Notes: generated by a model not told the origin, from the sequence alone. Positions 6,001 through 38,900 are shown, counted from the whole stretch's first letter. The stretch: DNA of 48,929 bases, filler included, from Sphacelaria rigidula (GCA_964200075.2; 3 parts of 3 records of this genome joined end to end with filler, not necessarily neighbours in it); one strand, 5' to 3'. A program made the numbers and translations.

Positions 6001-6858
6001 GGCGCCGACGTGCGCCGCCACGCCGCCAGCGGTGCTGGCAGCGGCCGCCGCTCGCGCGCTACTTGTCGGCAAACCAGCCCTCTGCCGCGCAGCGTCAAGC
6101 GCGGGCATAACTCCTATACCAGTGTCCACCACCTCCCCCGTTGCGCTGACAATACACTGGTTGTTCGCCGGGGTGTCCCAGTTTCTCTGGCGTATGACGC
6201 CGATCGCGCCGGCGGCTCCGCCACCGAACTCCGTGGTGCCCGTTAAAGTGCCACTCCGCTGCCGCGCCTTGTAGAGTTGCACGTTATCGGGGGTGTACAC
6301 CGTCTGGCGAGTTCCGCCGAGAAGACTGCTTCCCTGGCTGCTCAAACCGGGTCGGTGGCGGCGGAAGCCAGACTGACCCAGGTTCCCAAATGCACCCTGA
6401 CCCCCCCTGTCGGTGTCGGGGCCGCTGGATACCGAATCGTTGTCCCCGTCACCTCCGTCGCTACTGAAGAACATGCTGCCGCTTCCCCAGACCACGCCGG
6501 CGCCGGCGCCGCCGGCGCGCCTGCTGCCGGCGGAAGGGACTGGTCCGTGCATGCTTGAACCGGCTGCCTCTTGCATCATCTGGTCCTCGTCGTCCTCCGT
6601 TTCAACTCTGTTGGTTCCCATGTGATGCGTTCGATTGACGACAACGATGATGACAATGATAAAGATTATGAAGATGATGGCGGCGGCAACGAGGGCGACG
6701 ATATGAACACGCGTGCGCGGGTAGCAGGGGGGGGGGGGGGGGGCCAATACTATACGGAATTGGGTTATACTAAAGTCCTATATGCTAGCATGTTGAAGCA
6801 AAAAAAGAANNNNNNNNNNGTGAAAGTGGGGGGGGGACAACGGGGGCACGAGCTAGAA

Positions 6859-16245: not shown

Positions 16246-16345
16246 NNNNNNNNNNNNNNNNNNNNNNNNNNNNNNNNNNNNNNNNNNNNTTAATTAATTA
16301 ANNNNNNNNNNNNNNNNNNNNNNNNNNNNNNNNNNNNNNNNNNNN
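16246..16345. other. Artificial scaffold linker (N44-TTAATTAATTAA-N44)
   Basis: Six-frame stop linker between N runs; flanking pieces are 16245 and 16243 bp, consistent with size-sorted concatenation. Confidence 0.97.
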
Positions 16346-17009: not shown

Positions 17010-19886
17010 ATGAAGCCTTCTGGATCCGATCCCACTCCCGTAATGCTTTCACAAGTACCCACGTCGACGGTGCAATGCGTGATCGCAGGCTGCGGCTACG
17101 AGGTCGAGGTTTACGGCGTGAGGGAGCGACGGCTGCCTTGTACATTTTACAAGTTACCAACTATCTTCCCGCGCTGTCTTCCTCAAAAATTTCACCCCTC
17201 TGCCATTCGAAGGCGTCAGCGCGCTCATCTGAAAACGCACGACGGCGACTTCGCAGAGGGAAGCCCGGAGCAACGGCACCTACTTGAAGCGCAAAGGCGA
17301 TTGGCGTCGATACGGTTCCGAGCGAAGGGGAGCTCGGCACACGAGCTGCAGCTGTCGAGAAGAGAGAGGAGGAACGAGCGGCTGAGAAACTACCGTGAGA
17401 AGGCCGCCCGGCTATTCCACTTGAAGAACGAGCGCTGCTGGAGGGTGAGAGGCGGCAATGTCGTGTCCCCTCGGCAAGCGAATGATTTGCCGTTTGTACC
17501 CCCCATACACAGGCGAAGACGTCTGGCCTCAGGCATTCGAAACGAATCATGCCGCCTATGTACAGTAACGATTTCGGCCTGTGGCGTCGTCCGGCATATC
17601 CCCCATACGAAAAGGGTGTAAAAAAAGAAAGCAGTTCGAGACAAAGAAGGCATAGATTGATCCAGAGGGAAGAATACAAGAGCACAACAGAGAGCGGAAA
17701 AAAACGATACTTTTGTTGACTGTTGCGCTGCGAGGGTAGTCCATCTGGATCGTGCATACCCTTTCCAATTGAAGTTGGTGCCGATTTCGACGGATGAGCT
17801 GCTATTACCGTGTAGGGGTTAATACTCTGGTTTGTTGGGACGTGCAATAGAGAACAAACTCCGCATATACAGACCGAACACTAGAGTGCGGACGTAAGAG
17901 AGCGCTCATCAACATGGAGATTTCCGCCATGTGCACATTCTCGCCCGTCACCTACTCCGCCTTCCATTCCTTCGCGCTCCCTTCGTACATGCAGCCTTTC
18001 GAAGAACGATTACGGGAGTCTGGGTTCCAGCGAAACACGTTACCTTCAGCGGGAGAGGTACATGACATAAACGTACTGGGTCATCTCACCCAAGACGCGT
18101 TTTACGAAGCAGCAATATTTTCTGGGTGCGGGCAACTTCAGATCAACGCTTTCTTTGATGTGGTGGAAGGGGTGCTCCTCACGGCGGAACGAGGCAAGGT
18201 GGGTGACATTGAACGCACACCGTGAGTCACCAGACCTCAAGAAACGTCCGTGAAAAATGGTTGGTACTCGATTTCACTTGGATTCAGACTGAAAAAAGTT
18301 CTCATGAAATTTGGGTTTGGGGCAGATGATCGCAGGTGACCAGTATGCCCGGCTCGTCCAGAACGTGTTTTGGTCCAAACTCGGCACCTGCGGCGTCGAC
18401 TCTGTACGTACACATGTTCCCCTGTTATTAGAGGTGTCTCGAACTCGAGGTTCTCGGTATATTTTACAGTAGACAAATACACCGGGAAACCTCGACTTCG
18501 AGATCCCTTCATCACCCAGACGCTACGTAGTTCGCGTTGTAACAATGAACTGCTGCTTTCTTTTATTTCCTTTTATTTCGTCGTCCATTAGTATCGTGAT
18601 TGCAGCCATCGTAGTGGTCAACAGTCCGCGAAAAGGATGGGATGACACCCCCCTCCCCCCACTCACACTCACACTCACACTACCACTTCCACTCCCAAAT
18701 GGAAACAATAATACTTGTGTATGTTGTAGGTTACTGATGCTGGTACGCAGCTCATGCAATCCGCTCGGTTCAACCTGGGCAATGGGAGGGATCTCCCCAG
18801 CACCAAAGCGCTGAGGACCGTTCTGTCCTTCCGCGAGAGGACGATAACCGCGGAGGAACGCAGCGCGAGGGTCAAACGGCGGGATGACCAACGCCAGGTG
18901 CTGGGGGGAACACACGACTGGCCCGCTTGGGATCCTTACGCAGCAAAGGGCTCGGTGAGTGAATAGTGTACCAAACTCCGCCTCCCGAGGTCATGTACCG
19001 AGAACACGCCACGACCCGGGCCAACCTGAAGGCTCATATCTGCGTAGCACACTATACCTTCCTCGTGTCATGAAGCATACCGCTGTGAAGTGCAGACGAG
19101 TCACCCTACGACAGGGGGGGGGGGATTTCGGGCCATTTGTTGCTCGAAATTTCGAGTCAGATCGTCGTTGAAAGCAGCAACGGTTGTTCGATCGAGCTTG
19201 TTGTGGATCAATAACGCCCATCCATACTCCTTGACACCGTTTGGAACCAAATACAAGCGCAACGCAAGTGTGGAAGGATGTCTGACACGCTTACGAGCCT
19301 CTTCTTTCGTGCAACTAAATACCCTCCGCCCCCTCCTATCGTAGGATGACTCAGACGAACCTGCTTATGCACGCTCTTCTGTTCTAAGGCCACTTGTTAT
19401 TATTTTTCATGTCGAAAACAAAACTCCGGCCGAGAGCTCCTGTATATTTTAACCTTCTCCGTCGCTTCACGCCCGAGAGGAGGGCTACGGTGATGTTGAC
19501 ACGCTGGAATGGCTTCCTGTACCGGTTGAGACCGTCCTGGGACGAATGGGGGCATTTTGTTCTTACCTTCTCGGCCAGCGTTCCACTTTGAATAACAAAC
19601 GGCCAGGCCGCCAGAAACGAATCGGGGTTAGTTTTCCCCGGTCCCCTGATAACGCGACCGTTTGTGATTGAAAATGCATCTGTGCCAAAGGAAAAACCTG
19701 CTCAGACAGAAACTCAAAGGTGCCCTCGGAGCAATCTCAGCGAATAGAGTAGCACGTCATTCCAAGGAGTCAACATTGCTCCCTTTTCGAGCGTACAACA
19801 ACGACAAGGGCCGCAAAAGCGGTAGTCTTCGGTCCGTCTTTTTCCCCTTCACACGTGATGAGTAGCCTGAGGACGAGAGGGTGATG

Positions 19887-19927
<41 letters not shown>

Positions 19928-21114
19928 GAAACGTCACATGCATGATGTACGGCCTCAACGACGGGATCACACTCTCGACGAAAAAATACCCGTACCCGTC
20001 CGGATTCGAGCTGGTGATCTTCCCCTGCTGTGAAGGTGTCTCTTACGACTCATACCACGGGGTTCAACGGTGGCACAAAAAACGTGAAATGCACGGCAAA
20101 AGGTTAGAGAGCATTCGATTTTTTGGTCAAAGGGTTTCGCATACGGTGTACGCATCGATACGCAAAACTTTACCGCGGTAGCCGAAGACATCGAACGTTG
20201 TGCTTGTTGAGTCATGACGTGAAAAGATTTTCCCGCGGCGTTGAACTGGCTCTAAGTTGCCGCCTTGCTTCTCTTCGTCCAACTACCGCAGCACCGTCCC
20301 GAGCGATCATTGCGTAAACCTCATTAAAACTCTCAGCCTGTAGCTCTCCGCATCGAGGCGTGCACAGCCGGCCCAGCTTTCGGCTGATCCACCTGTACCA
20401 CCTTCAGATCTCTTTTACGCTAAGATACTCTCGCCACATAACGATAACGTGCACGCCTCGCTTGCTACCCCCGACAACGCACAGGGATGGGACTACCACA
20501 ATCGGATCATGGGCTTTTCCTCCGTGGGAAAGACTTGCGGCGGGGGCCACCATTTGGCGAGAAGAGATGTGATCGCTGTGTTCGACGCTCTACTGACGAG
20601 CAAGGTCCGTCATCGTGTTGCCTGCGAAATAGGGTTTGGAACAGGGTTTATGTTGTCCGAGATACTAGCGAGAGGCGTCCTTGCCGTCATAGGGCTGGAA
20701 ATCCCCGGAAACGGCACCACGGTGATGCAAACCTTCAAACCCGACCCCAGGGTCGTCCTGTACGAGGCTTACGGCGAGCACCTTTGCCTCGACAGCATGG
20801 TTCGAGCAAGGGTCACAACAATTTGTTGCATAGTGGGAGACCCCGGCTTAACTGAGCACATGACCAGGCTCTTCCTGTCGAGCCCATACGCCTGCGAGCT
20901 GGCGTACCTCCTCCCTGTACATGCGTGTGACGCAGAGCGCCTGCTGCGGGACAGCGGGAGAGTGACAATTCAACGCCTAGCGGTCAGACTGGCAAGGTCG
21001 TCGGGGACCCGGACCATCGTGGTCGCGGTGAAGACCCGCGATGCGCGCAGGCGGACAGAAAACTACAAAATATGGTGCCCTTGCGGCAGGTTTAAGCCCA
21101 CCCCCGCGCCGTAG
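17010..21114 (+). CDS. Putative spliced gene: N-terminal C2H2-like zinc finger and C-terminal class I SAM-dependent methyltransferase-like domain
   Basis: Phase-0 compatible exons 17010-17444 (probable small intron 17109-17186 with a degenerate acceptor; CVIAGC...AHLKTH), 17995-18198, 18730-18954, possible further exons at ~19479-19625 and ~19690-19821, and terminal exon 20485-21114. Joining the exons into one gene is inference. Confidence 0.5.
19098..19352. mobile_element. MITE (255 bp) with GAGTCA-starting TIRs and 4-bp TSD
   Basis: Left end GAGTCACCCTACGACAGGGG; right end reverse complement GAGTCATCCTACGATAGGAGGGG; AGAC duplicated at 19094-19097 and 19353-19356; second copy at 21549-21807. 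Confidence 0.85.
20485..21114 (+). CDS. Class I SAM-dependent methyltransferase-like domain (terminal exon, or standalone ORF from ATG 20509)
   Basis: Motif I VACEIGFGTG, helix, beta2 VIGLE ending in an acidic residue, then alternating strand/helix segments (VTTICCIVG, ELAYLLP, TIVVAVK); about 209 codons open; CAG acceptor at 20482-20484. Confidence 0.65.
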   Translation, partial: GWDYHNRIMGFSSVGKTCGGGHHLARRDVIAVFDALLTSKVRHRVACEIGFGTGFMLSEILARGVLAVIGLEIPGNGTTVMQTFKPDPRVVLYEAYGEHLCLDSMVRARVTTICCIVGDPGLTEHMTRLFLSSPYACELAYLLPVHACDAERLLRDSGRVTIQRLAVRLARSSGTRTIVVAVKTRDARRRTENYKIWCPCGRFKPTPAP

Positions 21115-21548
21115 GTTCGAGGTGAACCTGTAGGTTGGAGCAACCGCCTTGTACAGACAGACAGCTTTTGGGGTGCCCCCTTCCGACGCCCGTCCTGTGT
21201 GTTACTCTCGTCCTCATGTATACGAGTATACGTTAAATTCTGGGAACGAGTGCTTTCCCACCTCACCTACGCCCCCGTTGAGGGGTCCCGCCGAGCGACA
21301 CGGCGAGAAAACCACTGCGTGATGGACTCATGGCCTTTGTCTTTCTCCAGTATATCCAACATTTCTTCCACCCTCTGCTCGTGCGTAGAACCAGGACTGT
21401 TGGCCTGGGCAGGAGGGGAAGAACCACACGCGGGGGAGGAGAGTGCAGTTACTCTTGATTGACTGGTACGCCGACATTCGAACAACGCTTTTGCGCCTTG
21501 TACAGAAAGAGGGTAGGGATGATAGATGTAAAAGATTTTAGTGTAATG

Positions 21549-21807
21549 AAGTCATCCACGATGGGGAGGGGCGGGGGTTTTTGGGCCACTTCTTGCACGA
21601 ACGTCCGAGTCAAGTCGCCGTGGAAAGCAGCAACAACGTTTGCTCGAACGAGGTCTTTTGTAGATAAGTAACGTTGATCCGTACGGATCGACACCGGTTT
21701 GAACCAAATACAAGCGCACCGCGAGTGTGGCAGGTCGTCTGACACACTCACGAGCCTCTCTTTTGGTGAATCAATCAAATTCCCCCCCCCGTATCGTACG
21801 ATGACTC
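21549..21807. mobile_element. MITE, second diverged copy of the 19098-19352 family
   Basis: Shared internal blocks (gaaagcagcaac, aaccaaatacaagcgca, tctgacac..acgagcctct); ends aagtcatcc / gatgactc; flanks AATG / CATG. Confidence 0.8.
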
Positions 21808-21840
21808 CATGTATGAAGTAGAGGTAATGAGCACCTAAAT

Positions 21841-21944
21841 CTTGGAGGTGCCTGTATTAGGAGTAGGAACGGTGCTCCGTCTGGAGACGGACGCGTGGTG
21901 AATGGTCAAAGGACGAAGGCAAGCAACAAATGAGTGCGCCCCCC
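21841..21944 (+). repeat. Oligo(C)-tailed dispersed repeat, family B (diverged)
   Basis: ggagtaggaacggtgctccgtctggagacggacgcgtggtgaatggtcaaaggacgaaggcaagcaacaaatgagtgcgcccccc, the reverse-complement homolog of 9000-9103. Confidence 0.85.
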
Positions 21945-22759
21945 TTGGTAGAATGACTCGGCTGCGACACCGGTGGCACGGGGGGCAGGCGACCTTTGTA
22001 GCCTACACTGTTGATAAGGTGTGTGGTAGAACTCAGGGGGTGTATCACACGTGAAGGTATCGTTGTTTTCGCCCACTTGGAGGATTGCAGCAGTGGGCGG
22101 TGGGGGCGGGTCACGAACTGTATTGGGGTGCGGAATGGACACAAGACAGTCCTCCAGGAAGCGTTTTATTGTCTACATCGAACAGCACCGCTTGCACTAT
22201 CCCACACGCGTTCTATCGCGCGAAAAATGCCAGCTACATGTGCACCTTGGGTATTTTATTTACCCGGGAGTTCCCGGGGTAACGAAGCGGAGTATCTCCG
22301 CCTTCCTCATTTCCCGCCACTCCTTCTTGAAAAATGACCATGACGAGCGGTCAGGACAAGAAACAAGAAAAAAACTCCTTCTCTTGTGTGCCGTTTGACG
22401 TGGTGCCTCAGACGGCGAGAGTAGGTCAGCTGTTCGAGCGGCATCGATTTCCCTTGAAAACGGTGTGAATGATCGGGATGGACTACCCTCGTCGCAGACT
22501 GGGGTGAAGGTTTCTTCATTTACTGTCACATCCCACTGTTTCTTGTGCGCGGGTGTCTCGTAACCAGAACTTAAAAAAAAACGGGCCACGCTGCGCGTTC
22601 GACGTCCACATGTACCGGTACCATCGACGGCCTTACCCTCAACGTGCGAGAGACGGCTTTCCCCATGGTCGAGAAAGAAAATGTGTATCCGAACTCGCTA
22701 CGCCGCAGCACGAAACTCGTTCGCAAATGTATGGTGAGGGATTCACGGAACGAACAACT

Positions 22760-24526
22760 TCAATCGCCCACCTCGACGAGTTCCAAGACGGAGTCCATGT
22801 ACCTCCCGATGAGCTTGTACCTACTGTATGTCGAAGCCGATCCCCAAGCGTTTGCCTGCCTTTGCGTCACATTGCCATGGCTTTTGAGGTTCATCCCTTC
22901 CCCTGTCCCGAGAACGGAAGCGGGGCCCTTCCCAGCCCACATTTGCCACACTGTGCTCAGCTCCCCACACTTGCCCAAGCCCGGCAGCCTTCCTTTGAAC
23001 CAGCCGTGTTGCTCGAGGTCAGGCGGTTCGCCAGGGCAGGGATGCACGATGCGGTGTAATCTTTCTGTCCCCGGTCCTCCCTCCAGCGCAAGTTGACGAA
23101 CCATGTCCATGAGCGCCGTTGCTGTCCTTTCCGATCTCTCAACTTTCGCCTCCAGCGCCTGAAGCTGCAACGACATTTGCGCGTTCGGGGGAAGTGGGGA
23201 GGGCGAGCGGCAGCGGCGAACGGTAGAGGCAGTGGGTGGGTACACATTGAGGATCTACATCTTGGCGTGCAAAAGCCCACCCGCTCCCGACAACGACACA
23301 ACGCGCGCAGCGACAGTACTAACCCCAGCAGCGAGGGTCTCTTGCTTGGTTCCAATTCCTTTCAACTCGTTTACCACCGCCGGACAGGCCTGCGACGACA
23401 ACCGCGTAGCCGCCTCGTTCGCTCCTAACTTGACGATCTCCTTCGACGCGGCTTGCCCCCAATCGGAAAACAGGCGGCTATTGAAAGGGTAGGTCTTGTA
23501 CAGGGCAAAGTCGGGAAAGCGGGCGCGCAGTTCAGCCGCTCCCCTACAAAGCACTAGTCTCAAATGAGCCATAAACTCGAGGGTCGCCCGTTCCGTTCTA
23601 GTGGTTTTCGTATCTCCACTCCACGTGCCGTCATCCAGCCTCTTGAGCAACGCCGTAAACCCCCTGAACACTTCGCGGTATAGCTGGGGAGGCACGTTCA
23701 CTTCTTGTCGAGGACAAAAGTATGACGCGGTACTCGCTGCTTCGCCTCTGCCGACGCATCCGCTCTGGCTCAAAGCCGACATGGTGGAAAGGGGACGGTA
23801 AACGAGGGTGCTGCTGCCCACCGCGGCTCCTCTGTCGTCCTTTGCGTGCGTGACGCATTGAGTTTCGAGCGGTGGCACCCTGCCATGGAGGGAGGCATGC
23901 AGGGAGGGGGAACGGGGTGCTATGAATTCGCCCTTGGGGTATAGTACCGCGCTGGACGCTGACTTCCATCAGCACCTGTTCCATTTTGCATCAGCTTGTC
24001 TTGCCTCGGCTTGTTTGGGAGACACGCTGCAGATGGTCGCGGTCATCCACTGACAAACACACAGCGCCGAGATACACGACTCTGCTCCATTCGATGAGCA
24101 GGCTACCCGCGCGGGGTTATACCTGATGCCTCAGCCCGCGACAAAGAGCACCGCTCATTGATTTTGTATTTATTGATTTATTTTTTACTCATTGATCGGT
24201 CGACTGGTGGATTGGCTGGTTGGTTGGTTCGTTGATTAAAGGGTGGGCACACCAACGATGTATCCAGCACACCGGAAGAGGAAACACTCGCCGAAGAATG
24301 CAACACATGCAGGAAGAGGGGGAGCGGGGGCGGGGGAACATGCTAACAACAAAGACTACACCGACAAAAGGAGCGCCTGAGACGAAGGAAACCCGCGCAA
24401 ACTGACCCGAACGCGAGGACAGGAACAAGACAAGAGCGAGGAGGAAGGGAGAGAGGAGGAACAGAGAGAATAGTGCACATACGAAACAGCGACACACGAG
24501 TACATCGATCGATGCTTTCAAGCAAT

Positions 24527-24568
<42 letters not shown>

Positions 24569-26412
24569 TACATGTGTTGTCTCTATAAACAATCTCAAGC
24601 AAGTAAGAAAGCCATCGCATCAACACACCTGTTGCGGGCATCCTCTTGTGAAGCGCTCACTCGTGCTCCGTGAACAGCTTTCCCCCTTATGCCAGCTTTC
24701 TCGTGAAGCGCGCGCACAGCGGCGTACTGTGCACTTTCCGTATATCTACTGCCACCAGTAGCCCCCGTGAATACGCGAGCCGTGTACCACTGTGTGCGAT
24801 CCAGAAAGTTGGGGATGCTATCGCCGTCCACATCAAAGCGCCAGAAAAGATACACCGCGAGAGAAAACAGAGGGCACAACGTAACATCGGAAGCTTCCAG
24901 GCACATGATGCTGTTTGCACGGCCAAACTTGATCGTTTTCCCAGTCCTGTGGTTTCAATCCCGGACGAGAGAAATCGACAGAGGGGCGCATGCTCACACA
25001 CTTTGCATCGTGATAGGTCGTGAACACATCAGGCCGTACTGCCACACCTGAGTTGCGTCGCAAACATAAAAGAACGCGCAGGGATCACAGCAGCACCAGC
25101 GATAACACTCGCCTCACAGTGACTACGATAGCTCGAGGGTTGCCGGGGCCCAATGCGGGCGTCAGATCGTCCGGCAGTAGCGCCAAATTGTTGAAACTCA
25201 AGTTCCTTGTCAGCTCCCCACGACAGATGAGCGCGTGACTGAGGTAAGAACAAACATCAGCCGTAGCGGGGGGCGGTCGACGACACTTGAATATTGAGCA
25301 CTGCCTGCTTTCATTTCCGGGCGGACTCTCTTCCGTTTACCCCGCTCCCCCCCCCACCACGCTGGGTCTCCGGAGGACTCACCGCAAGTTCGTGTCGGCG
25401 AGGAGTCGGAGAGCAGACCCTGCACGGCGACGATTTCGGCGAGGTGAAAGGAGCGAGAGGGCAGCAAGAAGTACGTTGTGTGTAGTGTTGTTCGCATATT
25501 GAAATCCAAACGATGTCGTGCACTATACGCGGCAAACAAGGTCGATACGCATACGACCTTCACTTGAAATTCAGGTACAATACAAAAGTCGTAGGAACAG
25601 CTGCGACGGAGCAGAAAAAACTTCTGGTGTGGATGGGGAACTTGACTTCACGGTCGACAAGGAAAACGGACTGCTGAACCCCTGTAACGAAAACAAACAT
25701 TAAAGGCAGGCACCGCAGGAGGGACGTGGAGTACTAAAAACAAACAAAAAAAGTACACATCCTGCGTGATCCCGGCTGATGCGCGCAGATACAACGAAAG
25801 GTGCAGATCGGCGTCCACAACAGACGGGACGACAACACACACACACACACACACACACAACCTACTCGCAAGTCGAGAAGAGTATTTGAAAATTGAGTAG
25901 AGGATTTGAGGCCATGCTCAAACTTGGAGTACGGTAGTTGAGGCCATACTCGACCTACTCCAAATTCGAGTGAAGTATTGAGGTCATATTCACTGCAGTC
26001 AAGACTTTGAGTACAGTGTTTGAGGTCATACTCAATCTACCCCAAATTTCGGTAGAGTATTTGAGGTCTTGCGAAAAAAAAAAAGCAAGGGCCGCAGAAC
26101 ATAGGTGTAGAGGTGAAAAAAAAATCGGCTGGTGCGCCGACATATACGGAAAGGTGTAGGCCGGCGTCCAGAACAGATGGGACGACAACACACACAACAA
26201 CACACACACTCAAAACAAAATCGACTTCACGGTCGACAAGGAAAACGGACTGCTGAACCCCTGTAACGAAAACAAACATTAAAGGCAGGCACCGCAGGAG
26301 GGACGTGGAGTACTAAAACCAAACAAAAAAAGTACACATCCTGTGTGACCCCGGCTGATGCGCGCAGGTATAACGAAAGGTGCAGATCGGCGTCCAGAAC
26401 AGACGGGACAAC

Positions 26413-26463
<51 letters not shown>

Positions 26464-27019
26464 CCTACTCGCAAGTCGAGAAGAGTATCTGAGGCCGCAC
26501 TCGACCTAACCCAAACTTGAGTAAAGTATTGAGGTCATACCCAAGTGGTAATCTATACTCGAGTACTACTGAGAGTGCTTACTCAATATTTGAGTGGAGG
26601 ATTGGAGGTCGAACCAACTGGTAATCTATACTCAAGTATTACTGACAGTGCTTACTCAATGTTTGAGTGGAGGACTGGAGGTCGTACTCGATCTACTCAA
26701 AAATTGAGTAGAGTATTTGAGGCCATGCTCAAACTTGGAGTACGGTATTTGAGGCCATACTCGACCTACTCAAAATTTGAGTGAAGTATTGAGGTCATAT
26801 TCACTGTACTCAACACTTTGAGTACAGTATTTGAGGTCATACTCCATCTACCCCAAAATTGGGTAGAGTATTTGAGGTCTTGCGAAAAAAAAAAGGGCAA
26901 GCACCGCAGAAGAAAGGTGGAGAAGTAAAAAAACTTGGCTGGTGCGCCGACATATACGGAAAAGTGTAGGTCGGCGTCTAGAATAGATGCAACAACGCAC
27001 ACGCGCGCGCGCGCGCGCG

Positions 27020-27076
<57 letters not shown>

Positions 27077-30047
27077 TACCCGGAGGTCGGGTAGAGTATC
27101 TGAGGCCGGGTCCCATGTACCACCGCTGACTCTCCCATGGAGGAGTCACATGTGCGGCCAGTAGACTCGCTCATTTTGATAACACGTACCCAACAACCCG
27201 TCTACTCGATTACTCGATGATGATGAGTAGCGCTTGTACTGAAATTGATATCGAAGGGGTTCAAGGGTACCAAATATGTACTGCCATGGGCGGGGGCAGG
27301 TGAGCTGGGGCGGTCAGGTTCATTCACCTGCAAGCTAGTTTTGTTTTTTGATGGCCATCATCCGCTCATACTCATCGCAGCCTGTCTATTCAATATAATC
27401 TTTGAACTGGCGTGACGAAGTCGCCGACGGTCACGGTTGTTTCTCATACCCGGGTGATCCTCTACACTCGAGTATTACTGACAGTGCTTACTCAACATTG
27501 AGTAGAGCATCGGAGGTCGTACTCGATCCACACAAATTTTGTGGCGAGTATTTGAGGCCATACCCAGCCAACTTCAAATTTGAGTGGAGTGTTTGAGGCG
27601 GTACTCGATCTTCTCTAAATTTGATCAGAGTATTCAAGGTCATACCCAAGCGATACGCTATACTCAAATATTACTGCAAGTACTCACTCAATATTTGAGT
27701 AGATTGTTGAAGGTCGTGCTCGATCTACTCAGACATTGATCAGAGTATTTGAGGCCGCACTTAACCCACTCAAAATTCGAGTGGAGTATTTGGGGCCGTA
27801 CTCGACGCACTGAAAATCTGAGCGGAGTAAATACTCGGGTATTTTTGTCGAGTACTCAAAAGTACATACTCTACTTGACGTGCCCTTGTAAAATTGCAAG
27901 AAGTACACTCACAGTACTGCACACTTGTTAACTAGCTACGCGTTTTGATAGTAAATGGTACTACTAACGACACAACGAGTGATCCTGCTGCTATGAGTTT
28001 CGCTTGTGATTTTTGTATCACACTTCAGTCTATCCGGAACATTGAGCACTCACTGGGGTTCTGCGAAACAAGAAGGGTTGCCACCATGGCCCTCCTCCGA
28101 GATCTTCCATACGTGGCCAGCGCAGGCACGCCGTCCACGTATTCGCTCTTTGACAGCCTTAAAGCATTGGCATGCTTGTCATGGACAGACCTCATCACGA
28201 GCATCACTGATTCGTTTGTACACGGCTTCATCTCTCCGACCGAAAATCGATCAGGGTCCACATTGCGCAGATGATCCGCCCAGGCCGAAAGGTTTGACAC
28301 AGCCGTTTGAATCGATCCGCTGGGTGACAAACGCAAGGCGACGACGAAGAAACGGGGGGCGGGGGGTCAGAGAAAATGGGAGCAGGAATCCGGATTCATA
28401 ATAACTGACCTTGCGAAGGGAGCCGAGTCGGCCGTCGATCCTCAACCACCTTCGGTGGAATGCACTTACGCGTGAAGGCGCGGCGCGGATATGATTCCGA
28501 GCCCCTCTCGGATCTGGGTACGCTTTTCCTGCCAGCGGATGAAGGCAATAAGCTGCGCGGGGGCGAGGTAGGGAGAGGCGGAGACGTGCGAGTATCTGGT
28601 GGGATAATTTGTTTGTGATCCTGAAACTAACCGTAGGAATGAAGACTGGCCTTCACTCGCGCTACAGTTGCTGCTGCTGGCGGTGGTGATGCTTTCGACA
28701 TTTGCAATTTTCCGATGTCTGACGCACGTCGTCATCCAGTAATGGGCACAAAAATGCAGTATTTTCTGCAATAATAAACTCACCAACAGGACATGGCGCC
28801 CTCAAGGACGCGGTTCTACAGACGCGTCGTTGACAAACAACAGAACGCAAGAAGGCTCACGCACAGTTCGAATGAATATTGTACAATGAGACAGCGTCGC
28901 ACCTTTGCTGGGCTTGGGTAATACACCGACGCCGCTTTCCTATCCATTCCCTCCTGCAGATCGGGTCTCGTGCCCATCCATGATCCGAAGAGGGCAACGG
29001 CAGCGTTCACATTGTTATGCGAATGCTTGGATCGGCGTTTGCGAGCAGCGTTCTGCGACTCGACCCGAGGACAGTAGAAAGAGAAAGGGCGGTCGAACAT
29101 GTGTACGTGGAGTCACAGATGGTGGGAAACAAGAAGAAGAGAAAAATCTCATCTATATCCGGCGTCCACACACAACATCCTCACCCTCCCCCCCCTTGTT
29201 TTTCTCCTCTCTACCCGTTGGAGCTTCGCCACCGGGAAATCCCCCCCCACAGCGAGGATATCGGTAGCTCATGGCGTACCTTTTCTGCAAACGCCTCACG
29301 ATCAGCCTTCTCGCTCAACGTTAGGCGGCCTTCATCCACCTCGCTTAGTGCAACGACAAACATATCGGAACGCTTGAGGTGCAAGTACCGTTTGTGAATC
29401 TCCTCGTCTCCGCCTAGTCGCCCCCGTGCCGGCGAGTGAACAAGCAACGAGGGACACGCAGGTCAAAAGCCCGGGACGAGTGGACCAGAGAAATGAAGGG
29501 CAACCGTCGAAGCAATCGCTGAGCGGCCAGCTGAGCGACGGTCGGACAACAAAAATGCACTCACCGTTCTGACCCGTCGTGCACAGGTTCGGCAGGCGAG
29601 CTCCAGGTGCAAGGAAAAGAGGGTCGGGCTCGCGCAGGAAATTAGTCCACGGCCGGGACATGAAGGACCGAAGAGTGCTTTGATCAACGGACGGATTAAT
29701 CGCCCCCGATTTATGAAGTACCTCCTTCAGCCACGCCCTCAGAACAAATTTGTGCCCCAAGGGAACGAGATTGACGTACAAAAATGAAGTCACTCCGACC
29801 CTTTTATAGAACATGACCAAACAACCCCTCCACTACCAAAACAGACTCGTTCTCACCTTCCGGTGGACCATACCCATCGGAAAGCTCCACCTCCGGCGGC
29901 TCGACAAAACCGTCAAGATCACCTTCGCATGACCCCCCTACCTCGCTCGACTCCCTCGCTTTTTCCGCCGGAGGGCAAGCCGTATCATCCCGACTTGCCG
30001 AACGACCATAGTTGCTGAAACCGCTGGCGCTGCTGGCGCTGCTGGCG

Positions 30048-30102
<55 letters not shown>

Positions 30103-30709
30103 CGTATGAATCGTTCTCATCCCCCCGGGAACTATGTTTCAGAGGTGACACGTGCCGCGCCTGACAACGGGGAACCGTCTTTGACAACGTTGGCACTTCA
30201 AACATTTTCCACAATAGAGCTGACTTCTCTGCCGTCGCGACGAGCACTGACTACGCTCAGTTCACTCGTCGCTTCTCCGGCTCAGGCGTGGCGTCACTCT
30301 CCGGTAGGGTGAACTCAAGTATGGATCTCACCTTTTCGCTGCAACTATCTTCTCCCCCGCTAGACGCCGGAACGCGGCGTCCTACAGATTTTCCGGAACA
30401 AGCGCCACCTAGAGCGGCGGAGTCCACCCGCTGCCGTCGTGATTCTTTCTCCAGGGGTCTGTGGGCATTGTTGACTACCGTGTCGTCGCTATCCTCCGGT
30501 CCCGATGCGCTCCGGGGTCGCTTGCTTTTGCGTCGACTGCCGTGGCGGGCAACTATTCCGTCACATCTCAGCATTTCCCTGCACTTTACAGCCGACGCTT
30601 TGGCTGCCGATCGTGCCGGCCCAACTCGCCGTGTTGCCGGCGCCGCCGGCGCCTTGGCTTTTGGCGCCCGCCCCGTGCCTCGTCCACTCGCCCCCTCCCT
30701 GTTCGGCAT
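22760..30709 (-). CDS. Crypton-type tyrosine recombinase (NDC10 domain II-like YR with GCR1_C-like C-terminus), multi-exon
   Basis: Phase-consistent exons (-): ~29800-29565, 29413-29280, ~29052-28903, 28552-28470, 28319-28054, 25419-25383, 25238-25113, 24946-24629, 24026-23976, 23879-23324, 23164-22760; low-complexity 5' exons in ~30709-29857 are uncertain. Peptide: LRLLADTNLRHALICRGELTRNL..GPGNPRAIVVTVRTGKTIKFGR..LCPLFSLAVYLFWRF..KAVHGARVSA..AKWN..LVYRPL..SYFCPRQEVNVPPQLYREVF..LEFMAHLRLVLCRGAAELRARFPDF..STVWQMWAG..AWGSASTYSRYKLI, matching the motif order of Crypton recombinases. Confidence 0.85.
25640..27075 (+). mobile_element. Four 3' SINE fragments in a tandemly duplicated block
   Basis: SINE 3' halves with (CA)n tails at ~25643-25860, ~26072-26215, ~26221-26462 and ~26883-27072; 25643-25890 is near-identical to 26223-26492. 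Confidence 0.8.
25861..27890. repeat. Degenerate GAGTA/TACTC-rich repeat array (likely subterminal repeats of a decayed DNA transposon)
   Basis: Many ~30-bp variants of gagtatttgaggycatactcgayctactcaaaatttgag at 25861-26070, 26463-26880 and 27450-27880, all inside the 2.6-kb YR intron. Confidence 0.7.
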
Positions 30710-31294
30710 CGCCGATGGTTTGTGACACTTCTGCGGGGAAAGTTGGGAAAACAGAGTTGCGGGGAGGGCAAGCGGTGGGTATGGCTTATAGCTTCGCTTT
30801 GATCCACCCTGATGGCGTGAAGCAGGCAACGCGCGCCAACTCTCAACTTGAACCTCCCTGCATATCGACTGCGATAGAGCAGCAGGCGTGTCAAAGTGGG
30901 TGTCTTGACTTCAACCAAAAGGTCGACACCGCGGATGTCACGCCTGTCCCGCGTCGAACCCAAACCACCCGCCAACGATCTAGTGTAGGACTGGTGATTT
31001 TGGTTTTTGCTACATGTGCTCGCGTCTGCCTAGAACAAAATCCGAGATACGCGTGCATGCACTGAGGGCGATCACCGTTTCGAACTCGGAAGTAGTGTAT
31101 CAGGGGGCGGCCGGATCCGACGTTCGACGAAGCGTTACTATGTACAGCTGTCGACCGATCGGATTGCAGTGAAGTACGAATCTGACTACGTGAGTGTTGT
31201 GTTGACCAATTTCGTGATCACTTGCGGGAAGGTAGACAACCATTCCAGTACCTCACGAATGACCCGTCTTACAGTCTCCATCAGAGAGTAGGTA

Positions 31295-31365
31295 CAGTTC
31301 AGTTCAGTTCAGTACAGTACAGTACAGTACAGTACAGTACAGTACAGTACAGTACAGTACAGTAG
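31295..31365 (+). repeat. (CAGTA)n/(CAGTT)n microsatellite
   Basis: Direct tandem pentamers. Confidence 0.9.
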
Positions 31366-32534
31366 TCTACATAAATGGGTCGTATCTAAATATATCCTCA
31401 GTGATTTTCGGACATGTGTCCAGCTGGTGCGTCCTCACACACTCGAGTGCACGGCCACTGCTCCTAGTACATCTATTTGCCCAGGCCTCGACGGCCCCAG
31501 CTACCGTATGTCTGACTATTTCACGCGGCCGGGTGAGGGTGGAATCCCCATCATGGTGCGCCCCTGCACCCTCAAAAGCAATCCGAGCGAAAGCCGTGTC
31601 AATTTCGACCTGTTGTAACAGTGGTACATAGAGCCAAGATCGTCACACCGGCTCCTTGAAGCGGAATACATATGTTGTGCCCGCTCCTACTCTACTGTGC
31701 TCTACGTGATGCGAAAACCAGATCTACGCACCCGCACGTGATGAAAGAAGATATGTGGAGCTCCCGCTTGGACAGGTAGCACGCTGGCGCCGTCCTACCT
31801 CCGACATTCAAGGTCCGGGCGACCTCCTACAATGTGCTTACTCCCTCGAACAGGGTGCATCATGTGCTCCTTCCTTGCCAAATTTGAGTCATCATCCAGG
31901 AGTAGGACGCTTGACCAAGTCATCGCTATTTTATTATAACGTCCAACGATTACAACCGCCTTCGTTGCTGCTTTTGATTATGCATGTGCTTCTTCTTGCG
32001 TTGTCGATGTTATTATCGTTGCTACTGCTGCTGCTGCTGCTTCTGCTGCTGCTGTTGTTGTTTTTGTTGGTTTCGTTTATATATCCTACATCGCTGCGGG
32101 TCTGAACAAAGTCAAAGAGTGTTCCCGTCCATTTCAAATTTTACGCTCTGGAGACATTGGGCTATAACGAATCACATAATCGTTGCGACGAAGAAAGAGG
32201 GAGGGCAGGCAGAACGGCACAGCTGCAGGCACGTACCGAGGATAACGCTAGTTTGAGATGGAGCCTGGTAGCGCACGTACGTTTCCGTCACTGTACTCTA
32301 CTCGACTGCACATGCGGCGCGTCTAGCTTCGTCTGGACGTCCCTGGATCGTCCCGCATCGCTGCTTTCCGACCCAAAAGGTGACACTCGGGTCACGGGCC
32401 ATGTCGCACTGGGGACCATGAGATGATTTCCCATCAGTAAATCGGTTTCATCACCCCTCATACCCCAACCCTACCCTATGGTGGCGCTAGGGCGACCCAC
32501 CTGCTACCCAGAGCTATGGCAGCACTCATGCAAA

Positions 32535-32588: not shown

Positions 32589-32688
32589 NNNNNNNNNNNN
32601 NNNNNNNNNNNNNNNNNNNNNNNNNNNNNNNNTTAATTAATTAANNNNNNNNNNNNNNNNNNNNNNNNNNNNNNNNNNNNNNNNNNNN
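32589..32688. other. Artificial scaffold linker (N44-TTAATTAATTAA-N44)
   Basis: Same linker as 16246-16345. Confidence 0.97.
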
Positions 32689-33786: not shown

Positions 33787-33987
33787 CCAAAAAGGTATTT
33801 TCCGTTTTTTTGTTGATCGACTTGGGAGAAGTGCCCTGACGGAGCTGTGGCCGATCAACCGAAATAATTATCTTAGCTGCTGCCATCAAACATGCGCACG
33901 TCAAAGTTGACCCGATACCTTTGGACGTTCGCCTCCTTTTTGACCGTTTTTGGAAGCGCAGAGGATTTTGTTGAGCGAGCTCAACAG

Positions 33988-35909
33988 GCCGTGTCGGCGG
34001 TATGGCAAATGACAACACGGGCGCGGGAGTGGGTAGCGAACGTGTCGGATGTGCTGTACCCAGGATCCGATCCACGCATGTTGGACGGTGGGCGCGCTGC
34101 AGTTGGCTTGGCAGATCTGCAAAAGCTGTTGCTGGAGTCACATAGCCTACCTGTGAGAGTTGCTGAAGCCGACGAGGTGACCAGAATAATTCGGGCAGCA
34201 GTGGACTGGCAGCATAAAGCGGACGACGCGCTTGCCGCTCTTCAGACTCCCACCCGAACCAGATCTGGGCGCGGTTCCGCCATGCAATTGACGACATTGA
34301 GAGACATGCTAAATGAAGCCCAGCTCATTCCCGTGAGACTGGATCAGAGAATCGAGCTCAAGGAACGAGTTGAAAGTGAGTGAAGGGAGGATATGTTTCT
34401 CTGGGAGTGTCACTTACATGTACACAATTTATTTCTTGTGTGGGCTTCATGTGCAAGCGTGAGGGAAAGTAGTAGTGTATACTTCTTGGCGCCTTTTCTT
34501 CCCTGGCAAACCTGGCAAACTCCAGTGTTCTTGGTCGTATCTCACTGTTGACCTGTTCGTTGAAATCGTGCACATCGATGTATGTCATAGCATTCCTTGT
34601 CTGCCATGGAACCACAGGTGTCAACGCACTGGCCACCAGCATAAGAGAAGCGTTCCCACCCGGGCGACGCACTAAAACGAGACCTTCTCTTGCTCAGGTG
34701 TGTTGAATTTTATTTAACGTATTTTTGCTTCCAACGGCAATACAGATGTGTATCAAATCAGGTGGACTTAAACCTTTCGCTCGAAAAGCATGTACATGTA
34801 CTCCATGTTGAGCAGACGCAAAACTGCGTGTGCGGTGCCGTTTTTGACAGACGGAGCACCTCATGGACAGGGTACGGGAGTCAGGAGTAGAGTTTCCCGA
34901 GTCGTTGATGCTCCGAAAGCACCTGGGTGCTGTCAACGAATGGCTTGCCAGGGCACAAGCCGCGTTAGCAGGCTCAGTGCAGTTACGCGAGTTGGAAAAA
35001 CTCCTCGCCGAAGCGGAAAAACTCGCGGTGGAGCCAGGCCCAAAGTTGCCGGAGTTGCAGGCCAAGATGGATAAAGCGCTTGGCTGGTTGGAGAAGGTTC
35101 GAAAAGCTGTGCCAAAGCAAAGATCAACAAGAAGAACCATGGATACTGAGGTGGAGAAGGTGCGTTGGTTCAACGGATACTTCGTAAAAACGTATGGTGA
35201 TCTTCTGCGTTCCGCGTTCTGGGCGGTTGTTATTATCGCCGAAAGAACTCTGACGCGAAGTGCAGACGCGTTTTCAAATTGTGTAAGCTTACCAACTTCA
35301 CATCCTTTGATGTTTCGCTTCCCTGAGCTTGAACGTAGTTTCAGCACCCTGTATGTCTTGAAAGAGGCTGTTGATGAGCTCGGCTCTGCGGCGGCTACGT
35401 TCGGCCTCCCAGGCCTGCGATTTAAGGGCGTGATACATGTTTTCTTGTTTTTTCAGGTTAGTTGTCGCATTGCTCTTGCTTCGCTCACGCGGTAGATTTG
35501 TTCGCTCGCTCAAAGTACAATGGGATTCCCACCTCAGGGAGGGTATAGAAGCCGCAGCACTCCGCTGGTCAAGGTGATGGGAAAACGCATCAAAACTACA
35601 CTACTTTGGGCGGACTTCCTGGGTTTCAATCACGATAGTAGTCGTCTTCCTGTTCGCGTCGCCCAAAAACGTAATGATTAATGTCGGCTGATAATAGTGA
35701 AATCCCATGAGGGTCAACTGGCTACAGGAGTGCTGATCCAGTGCCCGACGATGACGTGGAAGGTCAGTGGTGGGACAAAGGTGGCATTGGTAGCATAGTG
35801 GCGGATCCCTCGAGACTGAAGATTCGTCCCGCAAAGGGGGGGATTTGATACCCGGCCAAAAAAACCCGGTGAAAGTGGAAGTGACAGTTGACCGCCCTAA
35901 AAGGGGTTT

Positions 35910-35941
<32 letters not shown>

Positions 35942-38900
35942 ATATTCACATTGAAAATCCGGTACCTGGCCACATTGTGAACGTGTTTTGCAAGGCGGTT
36001 GCTCCCATGACAATTATTTCGACCCTCGTGATAGAAGACAGACCATGCGCTGTTTCGATGACCGTACACTATGCCGCGATCTGTTCGAGTGGTGAGTGCT
36101 TTGCATACTGCGGTGGCGCGATCATCACTTTCCCTCCCTCCTTCCTTCTCCCTCCTCAGCACTCGCACTCGTGCTGCATTCTGAAGCAGAGAGATGGCAC
36201 CAGTAGTAGGCGACTTGCAAAATGGCAAGCTGCGCATGTCATTTATAGTTCGCTACAGCAATTTTTGTGTGGAGTCTCGACTTTGACCGCCGTTAAGCGG
36301 GATCTCGCGTTACAACGGGCCGCATCGATGTGCGATATCACTGTATGTACAAGTAGGTGGTTCTCTGTTGAGTTGATTTTTGCTCGAGACAAGGCAGACT
36401 ACAGTGAAGTATCCGCTGCAATGCCCTACTGTCGTTCTACAGGTGGACCTCAGTCACGTGAAGGGCTTGCTTAATTCGTCTTCAACAACCGGGGTAGAGA
36501 TGGATATGAAAGAATTTAGCCATACGAACGATCTCATCGAGAACGCGGAGGAGTGGATGGCGCGTGTGAGAGAAGTGCTCGAGTCTGGGGAACCGGCCAC
36601 GCTTAATTCCTTGGAAAGTCTACTGCTCGAGGCAGAAGGCATCCCGGTCACCATGGACGAACAACAGCTGTTGACGGCGGGCATCAAGGCGCGACAGTGG
36701 CGACTACGAGTGGACAACACTATCAAGAGTGGCAAGGCCAAAGTGCACGACCTTCAAGAGCTGGCGTCAAAGGTGACGTTTACGTCGATGGTCAACACGG
36801 TGTGGTCTGGTGCACAAACTACGAGAAACTCAGAAGAATAACTTTGTTGAGCCAATGTGGCGGATGGCCCACGAAATCAAAACACCTATGCCGTAAATGT
36901 TGACTTCCCCCAGTGTTGCTACATTTGTGCCGTCTTCGCAAACTTCATTGTTTCTTATCTTGTGACTTTGAACAACTCTCTAAAGACCGCCGTCACTTGT
37001 TGTGTGTGTCTGAAACCTAAACGCGCTTATGATGCAGGGTGCAGCGCTGCGGTCTAGGTTTCCAAAGGATGCCAAGAACCACCGTGTCTACCGTGTTTTG
37101 GATGACAGCGAGTTACAAGCTCTGCTGAAGCGAGGCGAGGGGTGGACTCGAAAAGCGAAACTGTGCTTGCAAAGCATGCAAGCCGGGCGCGGTGTGGGCA
37201 CAACCTACCTGTCCAACTTGCTCAAGGAGGCCGTAGCTGTCAGGCTGAACTTGGCGCCTGAGGTCCGTGTCCGTGGTGACAGTCTAGCAGTTTTGCCAGC
37301 GTATGAATGCATGCCTATCAGTTTTCCGTAGGATTGGGATGCCAAGTAATCCCCTTGCAATCAATCATGGTATTTAGGGCGAGGAGCTTGCATCTGGTGC
37401 ACTGGTTGGCACTTCCAACCGACCAGCCGACTTGCCTTCTTCACACAGTTGAACCTACGTTGCAATCCATGTGAGTTTGTGAAAATTGGAAAGATACAGC
37501 GACAAGGGTATGGAGGTCACTAGACACTTGGTTTTCCCATAGAGATCCATCCTTTTTGGATGTGGGCATTCGCACAGGAGTGATCGATCCAAGAATCTAG
37601 CTTTGCACACGATATAGATCACCTGTCCTGCCACCATCAAGCGAGGTTCCGGCAAGGTAGGACATTTTTTTCATTTCGAGCGCGTTCGTTGAAAGCTGGG
37701 AGTTGGCGGAGAGACGATACAAGAATCTTGGAACATGAGGCAAAAGTATACTGTACTGCGCTGTGCTGTGCTGTACTGTATAGTACAGATCTAACTTGGT
37801 CCTGTTTAGATCTTCGCGGGAATGATGACGAAAAATGTAGTCTGTTGCGAAAAAATATGCCTGAACAACGTGACGTATTTTAACGTTTTGTATGGACCCA
37901 CGTTGATTCATGGTTGGCGAACACCATCACGTGCAATGGCACCAAAGCATTCACTCACACACTCTTGGCCGCACAATTTCCCTCAAGCTGACGTTTTTGA
38001 CAACACGAGATGTTCTATTTGACTGTGCTACATCGTGGCAACGTTTGCTCGATGAGTAAAATTAAACATTCCAATTCCTTTCGCTGGGTATTTTACAACG
38101 TCGTGGCGAGGAGTTGGAATGTACCCGTTTCATCTCCGTCGAGAAAAAAATTGGGAAACGGCGGTTTCGCCGGGGAAAAGTGGGCGGGCTGTTTGAACAG
38201 CGTCCTCATACAGTCCATGTGCGGGGAACGCCAACCCGCGGGGTTTTACGAGAAGACCTTTAGCCGCTGACTGAAGCTTCGCCGGAAACTTGTGTCGCAC
38301 GTTCCCAACTCGCATCAGTCGTCTGAAGCGATAGCCATGAGCCTTCCATAGAGCTGGTGCCGCAGCCGCTGGTGGCACTTATTTTCGATGCGTGGTTGAA
38401 GTTTGTTGCTGTTGAACATTCTACCCCGGCCCGGAATAGAAGCGACAGCAATCAACACACGTAATGTATTGAAATCCTTCGTCGCTCGTGGCGTGTTCAG
38501 TGCTTTGGTGCAGAGTTGATGGCATCGTGGTGAATCATGCACCCACCCCGTCCGCTTTCGTGTATCTGTTTGAGCAGATGAGTACGTTGAGAGATGTTGT
38601 GGGAGAGCTGAATCAATGGCGGGCAGACCATGAAGACGTGTTGCGTCCATTAAAGCTATGGGATGGCTTAGCATTATTGGAGCCACTAGCTCCAAGTTCT
38701 GCTGCTTCCAGCAACTCTGACGGTGACTCCAATCCTTCCCGGAAGGCCAACGTCTCTGAAAAATCGAGAAGTTCGGATGGTACTGATTCCGGCCCAGCCG
38801 CAACTAACTTGGGCAGTGATACCCCTCACAAGACGAACACGCCTGCTGGAGATGGCGCTGTCGACCAAGCGACAAATCAACCCAAGCCTATGGCTAAGAT

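Follow-up and report, generated by a model that had tools for sequence, protein, structure and literature searches.

A transcribed and spliced gene of 12 exons encodes a Crypton-type tyrosine recombinase in the brown alga Sphacelaria rigidula

Introduction

Has a Crypton recombinase settled as a resident gene in a brown alga, or does it still move, carrying its introns with it? The question is raised by a locus of Sphacelaria rigidula (GCA_964200075.2), which lies in a stretch of 48,929 nucleotides (filler included; three parts of three records of this genome joined end to end, not necessarily neighbours in it), referred to here as the window. A first-pass annotation, made from the sequence alone, had proposed an intron-rich minus-strand gene for a tyrosine recombinase (YR) at 22760-29800, with a full catalytic set, and had offered two readings, a mobile element or a host-domesticated protein. 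In the available text of PMC3212892, domesticated Cryptons (NDC10, GCR1, and the DUF3504 genes) are described as having mostly lost their catalytic residues. The analysis presented here establishes that the locus is a transcribed, accurately spliced minus-strand gene of 12 exons which encodes a Crypton-type YR, and weighs what kind of gene it might be.

Transcription and Splicing of the Locus

Seven public sequencing runs from two studies cover the stretch, none of them recorded as RNA, and four of them (X1-X4) were aligned over 20000-32500. X1-X3 are three runs of one study, whose RNA nature is the software's guess and is backed by splicing, while X4 is DNA-like. All 11 minus-strand splice joints are present in the contigs of each of X1, X2, and X3, as opposed to none of the 11 in X4, whose DNA contigs run straight across the exon-intron borders. 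The skipped parts end in CT..AC on the plus strand, i.e., they are minus-strand introns; after a shift of the cut positions by +1, ten of them have GT..AG ends and one (25112-24947) has GC..AG ends. Such contigs prove that the spliced form exists, and inform neither on its level nor on the ends of the transcript. Splice junctions are hence in use, the frame across them is open, and the proposal of an intron-rich YR gene on the minus strand is borne out.

The gene extends over ~10.7 kb of the minus strand, from ~30734 to below 20000, and the region first noticed (22760-29800) is its inner part, in which RNA supports nine exons rather than the 11 or more that had been proposed. Exon 1 (~30734-29857) contains the 5' leader and maybe N-terminal coding sequence; the contigs cover 30108/30119-30734 without a gap, and the 5' end at ~30734 is a mere contig limit. 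Its joint (29857>29413) leads to exon 2 (29413-29280, 134 nt), which contains Met134 and is joined in turn to exon 3 (29280>29052; both joints in X1-X3, GT..AG). The first exon drawn by the first-pass annotation (~29814-29566) falls within intron 1 (29414-29856). Exons 3 (29052-28903, 150 nt), 4 (28552-28470, 83 nt), and 5 (28319-28054, 266 nt) are likewise delimited by joints in X1-X3. Intron 5 (25420-28053, 2634 nt) is removed at joint 28054>25419, again in X1-X3, and leads into a 37-nt micro-exon, exon 6 (25419-25383), which had been predicted to the exact nucleotide and of which both flanking joints occur in X1-X3.

Next in the gene are exon 7 (25238-25113, 126 nt), which is followed by the GC-AG intron, exon 8 (24946-24629, 318 nt), exon 9 (23879-23324, 556 nt), and exon 10 (23164-22772, 393 nt). 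A stop at 22760 had been taken as the end of the gene; however, this position is intronic, and exon 10 is spliced to exon 11 (21404-21267, 138 nt; joints 22772>21404 and 21267>20940 in X1-X3). Exon 11 contributes the final 45 codons and has the stop codon TAG (21269-21267) as its last codon. A 326-nt intron thus lies inside the 3' untranslated region (3'UTR), and exon 12 (from 20940 to below 20000) continues this region past 20000, the edge of the aligned range. One single RNA-like contig of X3 links 20237-20939, exon 11, and exon 10.

Introns 1 and 3 are also retained in contigs of lower depth (11-20 and ~9, respectively, compared to 25-36 and 44-50 at the spliced joints). In intron 9, the retained-intron contigs of X1-X3 are devoid of four bases at position 23232 that X4 has, which is probably a strain difference.

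Family Membership and Fold of the Product

Stop-to-stop open reading frames (ORFs) on the minus strand contain recognizable pieces of a YR. Pfam NDC10_II (PF16787), the Ndc10 domain derived from the Crypton YR, matches the ORF of exon 8 with E 3.4e-11 and 43.2 bits (cut-off 26.3), whereas the match to the ORF of exon 9 stays under the cut-off (E 3.7e-4, 20.1 bits; with the exact exon 9, E 2.1e-4 and 20.9 bits). In blastp, the spliced protein finds fungal proteins with NDC10_II and GCR1_C domains at 21-29% identity, with E values as low as 5e-23; alignability with fungal Cryptons begins in exon 5, from about residue 281 onward. A sequence search of the PDB with exon 8 gave no match at E up to 1.

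Among named proteins, the nearest to the YR are partial sequences from Ectocarpus. One of these, P0002, was used to search 1.84 billion representative proteins, which yielded 83 relatives at E<=1e-3, 20 at <=1e-10, and seven at <=1e-30. The 20 closest relatives are fragments of 88-363 aa, and no relative better than E 1e-10 exceeds 363 aa. Protein collections therefore contain no full-length annotation of the brown-alga family, which occurs there as unannotated fragments only, just as the first-pass annotation had anticipated for automated gene prediction. In word-based searches, exon 8 and exon 10 had two relatives apiece. Of ten proteins scanned with Pfam, all eight distant ones (693-1097 aa) carry both NDC10_II and GCR1_C, while the two of brown-alga type carry NDC10_II only; the distant relatives with names come from Tilletia indica and Amoeboaphelidium.

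The fold was examined on P0002, which is 53% identical to the window protein, with an alignment that included exons 8 and 9 of the window. The resulting AF2 model has a pLDDT of 77.4, with low confidence in the loop around the Tyr. Compared by VIA-align, it resembles Ndc10 structures with Z 10.8, 10.8, and 9.0, while the next, unrelated chain reaches 3.8; its superposition on domain 2 of Ndc10 (Z 10.8) covers 191 of 228 residues at a root-mean-square deviation of 3.8 Å. Foldseek also places three Ndc10 entries at the top, yet with E ~1. By profile and alignment, the gene product is a YR of the Crypton/NDC10_II type, and the modeled fold of P0002 points the same way.

Joined together, the RNA-supported exons have an open frame of 849 codons from an ATG at 30205-30203, running across 11 exons. 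The predicted product of up to 849 aa would consist of an N-terminal region, a catalytic domain corresponding to Ndc10 domain 2 (~aa 280-640), a helical linker, and a C-terminal domain of ~130 aa. Exon 10 contributes the linker and most of the C-terminal domain, which is completed by exon 11 and conserved in relatives (85% identity in P0092, 73% in P0093, and 33% over 300 aa in P0019). The domain occupies the position that GCR1_C has in CryptonF proteins, and MAFFT, judged by eye, lays it over GCR1_C. However, no sequence method detected GCR1_C, for which the first-pass annotation had recommended a scan: Pfam found none in exon 10, exon 11, P0019, or P0088 (E up to 10 or 0.01), hhalign against eight segments gave a probability of 1%, and a custom hidden Markov model built from 25 segments scored 2.7 bits, within the range of 1000 shuffles. 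The three nearest clusters in the ESM Atlas (scores 0.85-0.86) have GCR1_C in 20-66% of their members, which is a lead only. Judged by these searches, the C-terminal domain would represent an unknown family and is not assigned to GCR1_C.

The Active Site

The residues of the active site were located by eye after three close and 20 distant relatives had been aligned to the spliced protein with MAFFT. Arg346, Lys385, His474/Arg477, and Tyr515 occupy the R, K, HxxR, and Y columns, which are conserved in all 20 distant Cryptons. In box I, encoded by exon 7, Arg346 and Glu348 (CRGE) align with the RGE/RSE column of the 20 distant Cryptons. Exon 8 provides the β-hairpin lysine, Lys385 (TGKT), on the GK(T/V)N column of the family, as well as His474 and Arg477 (HGAR) on the family motif THxxR, which is also present in P0002, P0009, P0011, and P0018. 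The presumed nucleophile, Tyr515 (TLVYRPLS), is encoded by exon 9 together with the C-terminal helices of the catalytic domain; it falls on the invariant Y and is nearly invariant in an alignment of 12 sequences. Four of the five motifs in the catalytic set that had been proposed (CRGE, TGKT, HGAR, and LVY) are therefore located in RNA-supported exons and on the family columns, while the fifth, a Trp (KWN), belongs to a proposed exon which the transcripts skip.

In the Trp column of the family motif GRW (W in 19 of the 20 distant relatives), the window protein has Ala500. The adjoining residue, His499 (VTHAK, exon 9), is located at +22 from Arg477, compared to +23 for the Trp in 19/20 fungal relatives, and the VTH motif is present in each of the six brown-alga relatives whose sequence spans the site (P0005, P0012, P0015, P0016, P0020, and P0088). 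From His499 to Tyr515 there are 16 residues, vs. nine from Trp to Tyr in the fungal relatives. With R, K, HxxR, and Y all in place, the tetrad and the Lys are intact; the His/Trp position is probably taken by His499, as far as the alignment indicates, and the recombinase active site is probably competent. By analogy with other YRs, the protein would bind DNA and cut one strand via a 3'-phosphotyrosine link to Tyr515, after which the strands would be exchanged and resealed through a Holliday junction.

The unused KWN exon, a stretch of 51 nt at 23976-24026 on the minus strand, was rejected as a candidate. It lies inside intron 8 and is skipped by the sole joint found there (24629 to 23879), and the RNA depth of the bin 23753-24169 is explained by exon 9 alone. 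Its inclusion would lengthen the interval from HxxR to the His/Trp position by 17 aa and break the spacing that now matches fungal Cryptons.

Resident Gene, Mobile Element, or Relic

The reading favored here, with a probability of roughly 0.55, is that the locus is a long-resident, low-copy, vertically inherited, host-gene-like derivative of a Crypton, whose domestication would be either incipient or complete and whose active site is probably still competent. Both halves of the original alternative, mobile element or domesticated recombinase, still stand; the lean towards a host-gene-like locus comes from the DNA depth, the scarcity of relatives, and their identity tiers. At the exon-intron borders, the DNA depth of X4 (84-120) equals that of the flanks (82-110), compared to 3,000-127,000 (30- to 1000-fold higher) at the intronic repeats, and extra near-identical copies are therefore absent by the DNA depth of X4, a contig depth which is flagged as not being a copy number and to which paralogues below 95% identity are invisible. 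There is no second copy of the gene in the 49-kb window, either. As a yardstick, the window contains a single-copy host gene, CFAP206 (PF12018), as one open frame of 540 codons at 44992-46614 on the minus strand. For CFAP206, ~30 relatives of brown-alga level were found, vs. two each for exons 8 and 10 of the YR. The identity tiers of the YR (~85, 72, 66, and 47-64%, the last to Ectocarpus) parallel those of CFAP206 (93, 80, 73, and 69%), a likeness which is only suggestive, as the relatives come without a species identification. Searches for relatives in DNA collections produced seven pattern matches in IMG/VR and 41 in JGI metagenome contigs, none of which was confirmed.

Residence is also suggested by the structure of the gene. 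Its largest intron, intron 5, has gathered and duplicated repeats over 2.6 kb while the frame stayed open. The boundaries of this intron and its duplications agree with the first-pass annotation: blastn aligns 25644-25889 with 26223-26492 at 88% and 25889-26195 with 26700-27002 at 90%. Moreover, the intron positions are common to relatives at 33-88% identity, of which fragments start or stop at the 7/8, 8/9, 9/10, and 10/11 exon borders; that they are common to relatives of as little as 33% identity argues for long residence. Further support comes from sequence variation, as all three SNPs (single-nucleotide polymorphisms) listed in exons 9-10 are synonymous, and from a kelp repeat annotation which, in the available text of PMC12595068, is nearly devoid of Cryptons (two copies, 111 bp). 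Exons 8-10 have three SNPs in 1267 nt among those listed, i.e., fewer than the adjoining introns. For the purifying selection that had been proposed, the evidence is thin: the synonymous SNPs agree with it, whereas variation is present at the start codon and in the C-terminal tail.

A number of observations weigh against residence, beginning with the limits of depth and identity tiers given above and with the source of the transcripts, since all RNA evidence consists of contigs, not reads, from a single study. Some of them would rather be expected of a transposon. The catalytic residues, intact and conserved across relatives, fit a working transposase equally well. P0001 (Ectocarpus sp. 12) has RAAR in place of HxxR and lacks the Tyr motif, beside an intact P0002 under the same species label, and P0013 is apparently frameshifted; degenerate relatives next to intact ones are the residue that a transposon family would be expected to leave. 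The locus could accordingly be an autonomous low-copy Crypton, a DNA transposon that carries its introns, excises as a circle, and reintegrates by means of its own recombinase. The order of the YR and the C-terminal domain is that of CryptonF, and intron-bearing Cryptons are known (available text of PMC3212892 and PMC13465315, respectively); in addition, a DNA transposon would inherit common intron positions just as a resident gene does. However, such a unit would exceed 10 kb and include the 2.6-kb, repeat-laden intron, and it would have neither near-identical copies visible in the DNA run nor a second copy in the window. Its relatives are rarer in protein collections than those of single-copy CFAP206, and element ends or terminal direct repeats are not definable from one copy. 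The DNA contigs of X4 show no joint that skips the whole gene, although contigs drop rare forms and hence do not inform on excision. Taken together, a mobile Crypton is a rather unlikely, if serious, alternative, and immobility, like catalysis and a host function, is inferred.

Other points against the preferred reading, a long-resident gene, concern the two ends of the coding sequence. The ATG at 30205-30203 occurs only in the strain of the window; in all four runs, a SNP at 30204 turns it into ACG. The start codon is uncertain for this reason; no second ATG lies in frame within exon 1. Met134 in exon 2 is the first in-frame ATG that is invariant among the runs, and its use would give a product of 716 aa. 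The leader ahead of Met134 would then comprise 928 nt with 11 ATGs, which is untidy as the 5' end of a host gene. At 30709 (minus strand), the RNA contigs have their first ATG, which opens an ORF of 150 codons for a basic, low-complexity peptide; this ORF shares the frame of the recombinase and is cut off from it by TGA GCG TAG (30259-30251). The ORF (30251-30709) may represent a lost N-terminus or a regulatory upstream ORF, or may have arisen by chance, the upstream region being GC-rich and open in several frames. Also in exon 1, an (AGC)n microsatellite (30053-30100, minus strand) would encode a poly-Ser run; RNA and DNA contigs break there. At the other end, the last 18 codons have four SNPs in 46 nt (21277-21322), i.e., far more densely than the core exons, which result in I832S, F836Y, T847R, and S846stop, a stop four codons early.

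These features would suit a transcribed relic, i.e., a former Crypton or Crypton-derived gene that has lost its proper start and drifts towards a pseudogene while its frame has not decayed yet: two stop codons separate the first ATG of the transcript from the main ORF, the sole ATG in the frame of exon 1 reads ACG in four runs, ten other ATGs precede Met134, introns 1 and 3 are retained in some contigs, and the C-terminal tail has a premature stop and three non-synonymous SNPs. Nevertheless, at least 716 codons are open over ten exons with every catalytic residue kept, the three core-exon SNPs listed are synonymous, the SNPs listed are sparser in exons 8-10 than in neighboring introns, and the upstream ORF may share the frame by coincidence, as one frame in three would, which makes a relic distinctly improbable, and less probable than a mobile element.

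Comparison With Known Cryptons and Crypton-Derived Genes

The closest known group is CryptonF of fungi and oomycetes (PMC3212892, in the text available). The window protein shares with it the NDC10_II-type YR, the order of N-terminal region, YR, linker, and C-terminal domain, and the conserved R, K, HxxR, and Y, and its best distant matches are the NDC10_II and GCR1_C proteins of T. indica and Amoeboaphelidium. In contrast to CryptonF, however, the gene has 11 introns over ~10.7 kb at an apparently single locus, an Ala in the Trp column beside a conserved His, no GCR1_C recognizable by sequence, and termini that are not defined from a single copy. Furthermore, its host is a brown alga, a group which is absent from the host table in PMC3212892, and a literature search turned up no account of Cryptons, or of genes derived from them, in brown algae; the host lists in the supplement of that paper may bear on both statements.

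Crypton-derived host genes, such as yeast NDC10/CBF2 and GCR1 or the animal DUF3504 genes ZMYM2-4 and KCTD1, resemble the window gene in YR origin, introns, single locus, and expression, and the predicted fold of P0002 is close to domain 2 of Ndc10. They differ in that most of their catalytic tetrad is lost, as stated in the part of PMC3212892 at hand, while R, K, H, R, and Y are kept here, and in that their orthology and synteny are established across species, while the window gene is known from one locus.

Two other systems present a similar problem. The Glomhopper CryptonA elements of Glomeromycota likewise have numerous predicted introns, are transcribed with their catalytic motifs intact, and raise the same question of domestication vs. 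degeneration; however, according to the available text of PMC13465315, they belong to the DUF3504 group and reach hundreds of copies per genome, with intron positions that are inconsistent across copies, whereas the window gene has few copies and intron positions common to its relatives. The intronic YR of bird ATF7IP (Kojima and Jurka, 2011; PMC3212892, available text) also derives from a Crypton and persists at one host locus, and the authors consider that it may retain catalytic activity. Yet it consists of one embedded coding block that lacks transcript support, while the window gene is an independent unit of 12 exons with spliced RNA contigs.

Intron Repeats and Neighboring Genes

High-copy dispersed repeats are located in introns 10 (21668-22084) and 5 (25838-27088), with summed DNA depths of ~127,000 and ~35,000, respectively, vs. 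~90 in unique sequence. By blastn, the dispersed repeats of intron 5 have copies of ~70% identity elsewhere in the window, and related copies occur at ~1790-2019, 7220-7456, and 44489-44725. The first-pass annotation had labeled the repeats of intron 5 as short interspersed nuclear elements (SINEs); this label is not upheld, as no tRNA-like heads were found in 19000-31000.

An ORF on the plus strand at 20344-21114 (first ATG at 20509, 256 codons, with a GxGxG-like stretch) runs antisense to the 3'UTR exon and reaches into the last intron. Protein-atlas features suggest similarity to S-adenosylmethionine-dependent methyltransferases (0.90-0.93, recognition 2408; bacterial, phage, and giant-virus clusters), and both SNPs listed within its ATG-to-stop frame are synonymous. 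No match was found in Pfam, NCBIfam, PHROGs, PDB, or phage records, and a single-sequence AF2 model was unusable (pLDDT 35).

A string of long open frames with Cys/His-rich stretches, PHD-finger-like by eye, extends over ~33877-43100 on the plus strand and is probably a large multi-exon host gene. The CFAP206 frame further downstream in the window is 69% identical to its counterpart in Ectocarpus sp. 8, 63-69% to those of named brown algae, and 51-53% to those of Tribonema/Chrysoparadoxa (sister groups), with relatives of up to 93%. These identities mark the window as brown-algal DNA. Runs of N (10 or 44 bases; gaps or masked) are present at 6810-6819, 9757-9766, 16246-16345, and 32589-32688 (a pair).

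Implications

The locus illustrates how genes of this kind escape annotation: it has short exons, among them a micro-exon of 37 nt, and one intron with GC-AG ends. A full gene model supported by RNA allows members of the family to be located and counted across brown-alga genomes, and makes it testable whether the locus encodes a still-mobile, intron-rich transposase or represents a host gene with a working recombinase site. The boldest form of the latter, in which brown algae would keep a vertically inherited, single-copy host gene for a Crypton-derived site-specific recombinase that is still catalytically active, is speculative and on balance unlikely. If true, the host might use the enzyme, e.g., for programmed DNA rearrangement or for handling integrated DNA, and the gene would stand apart from all Crypton domestications described so far, each of which involved loss of the active site.

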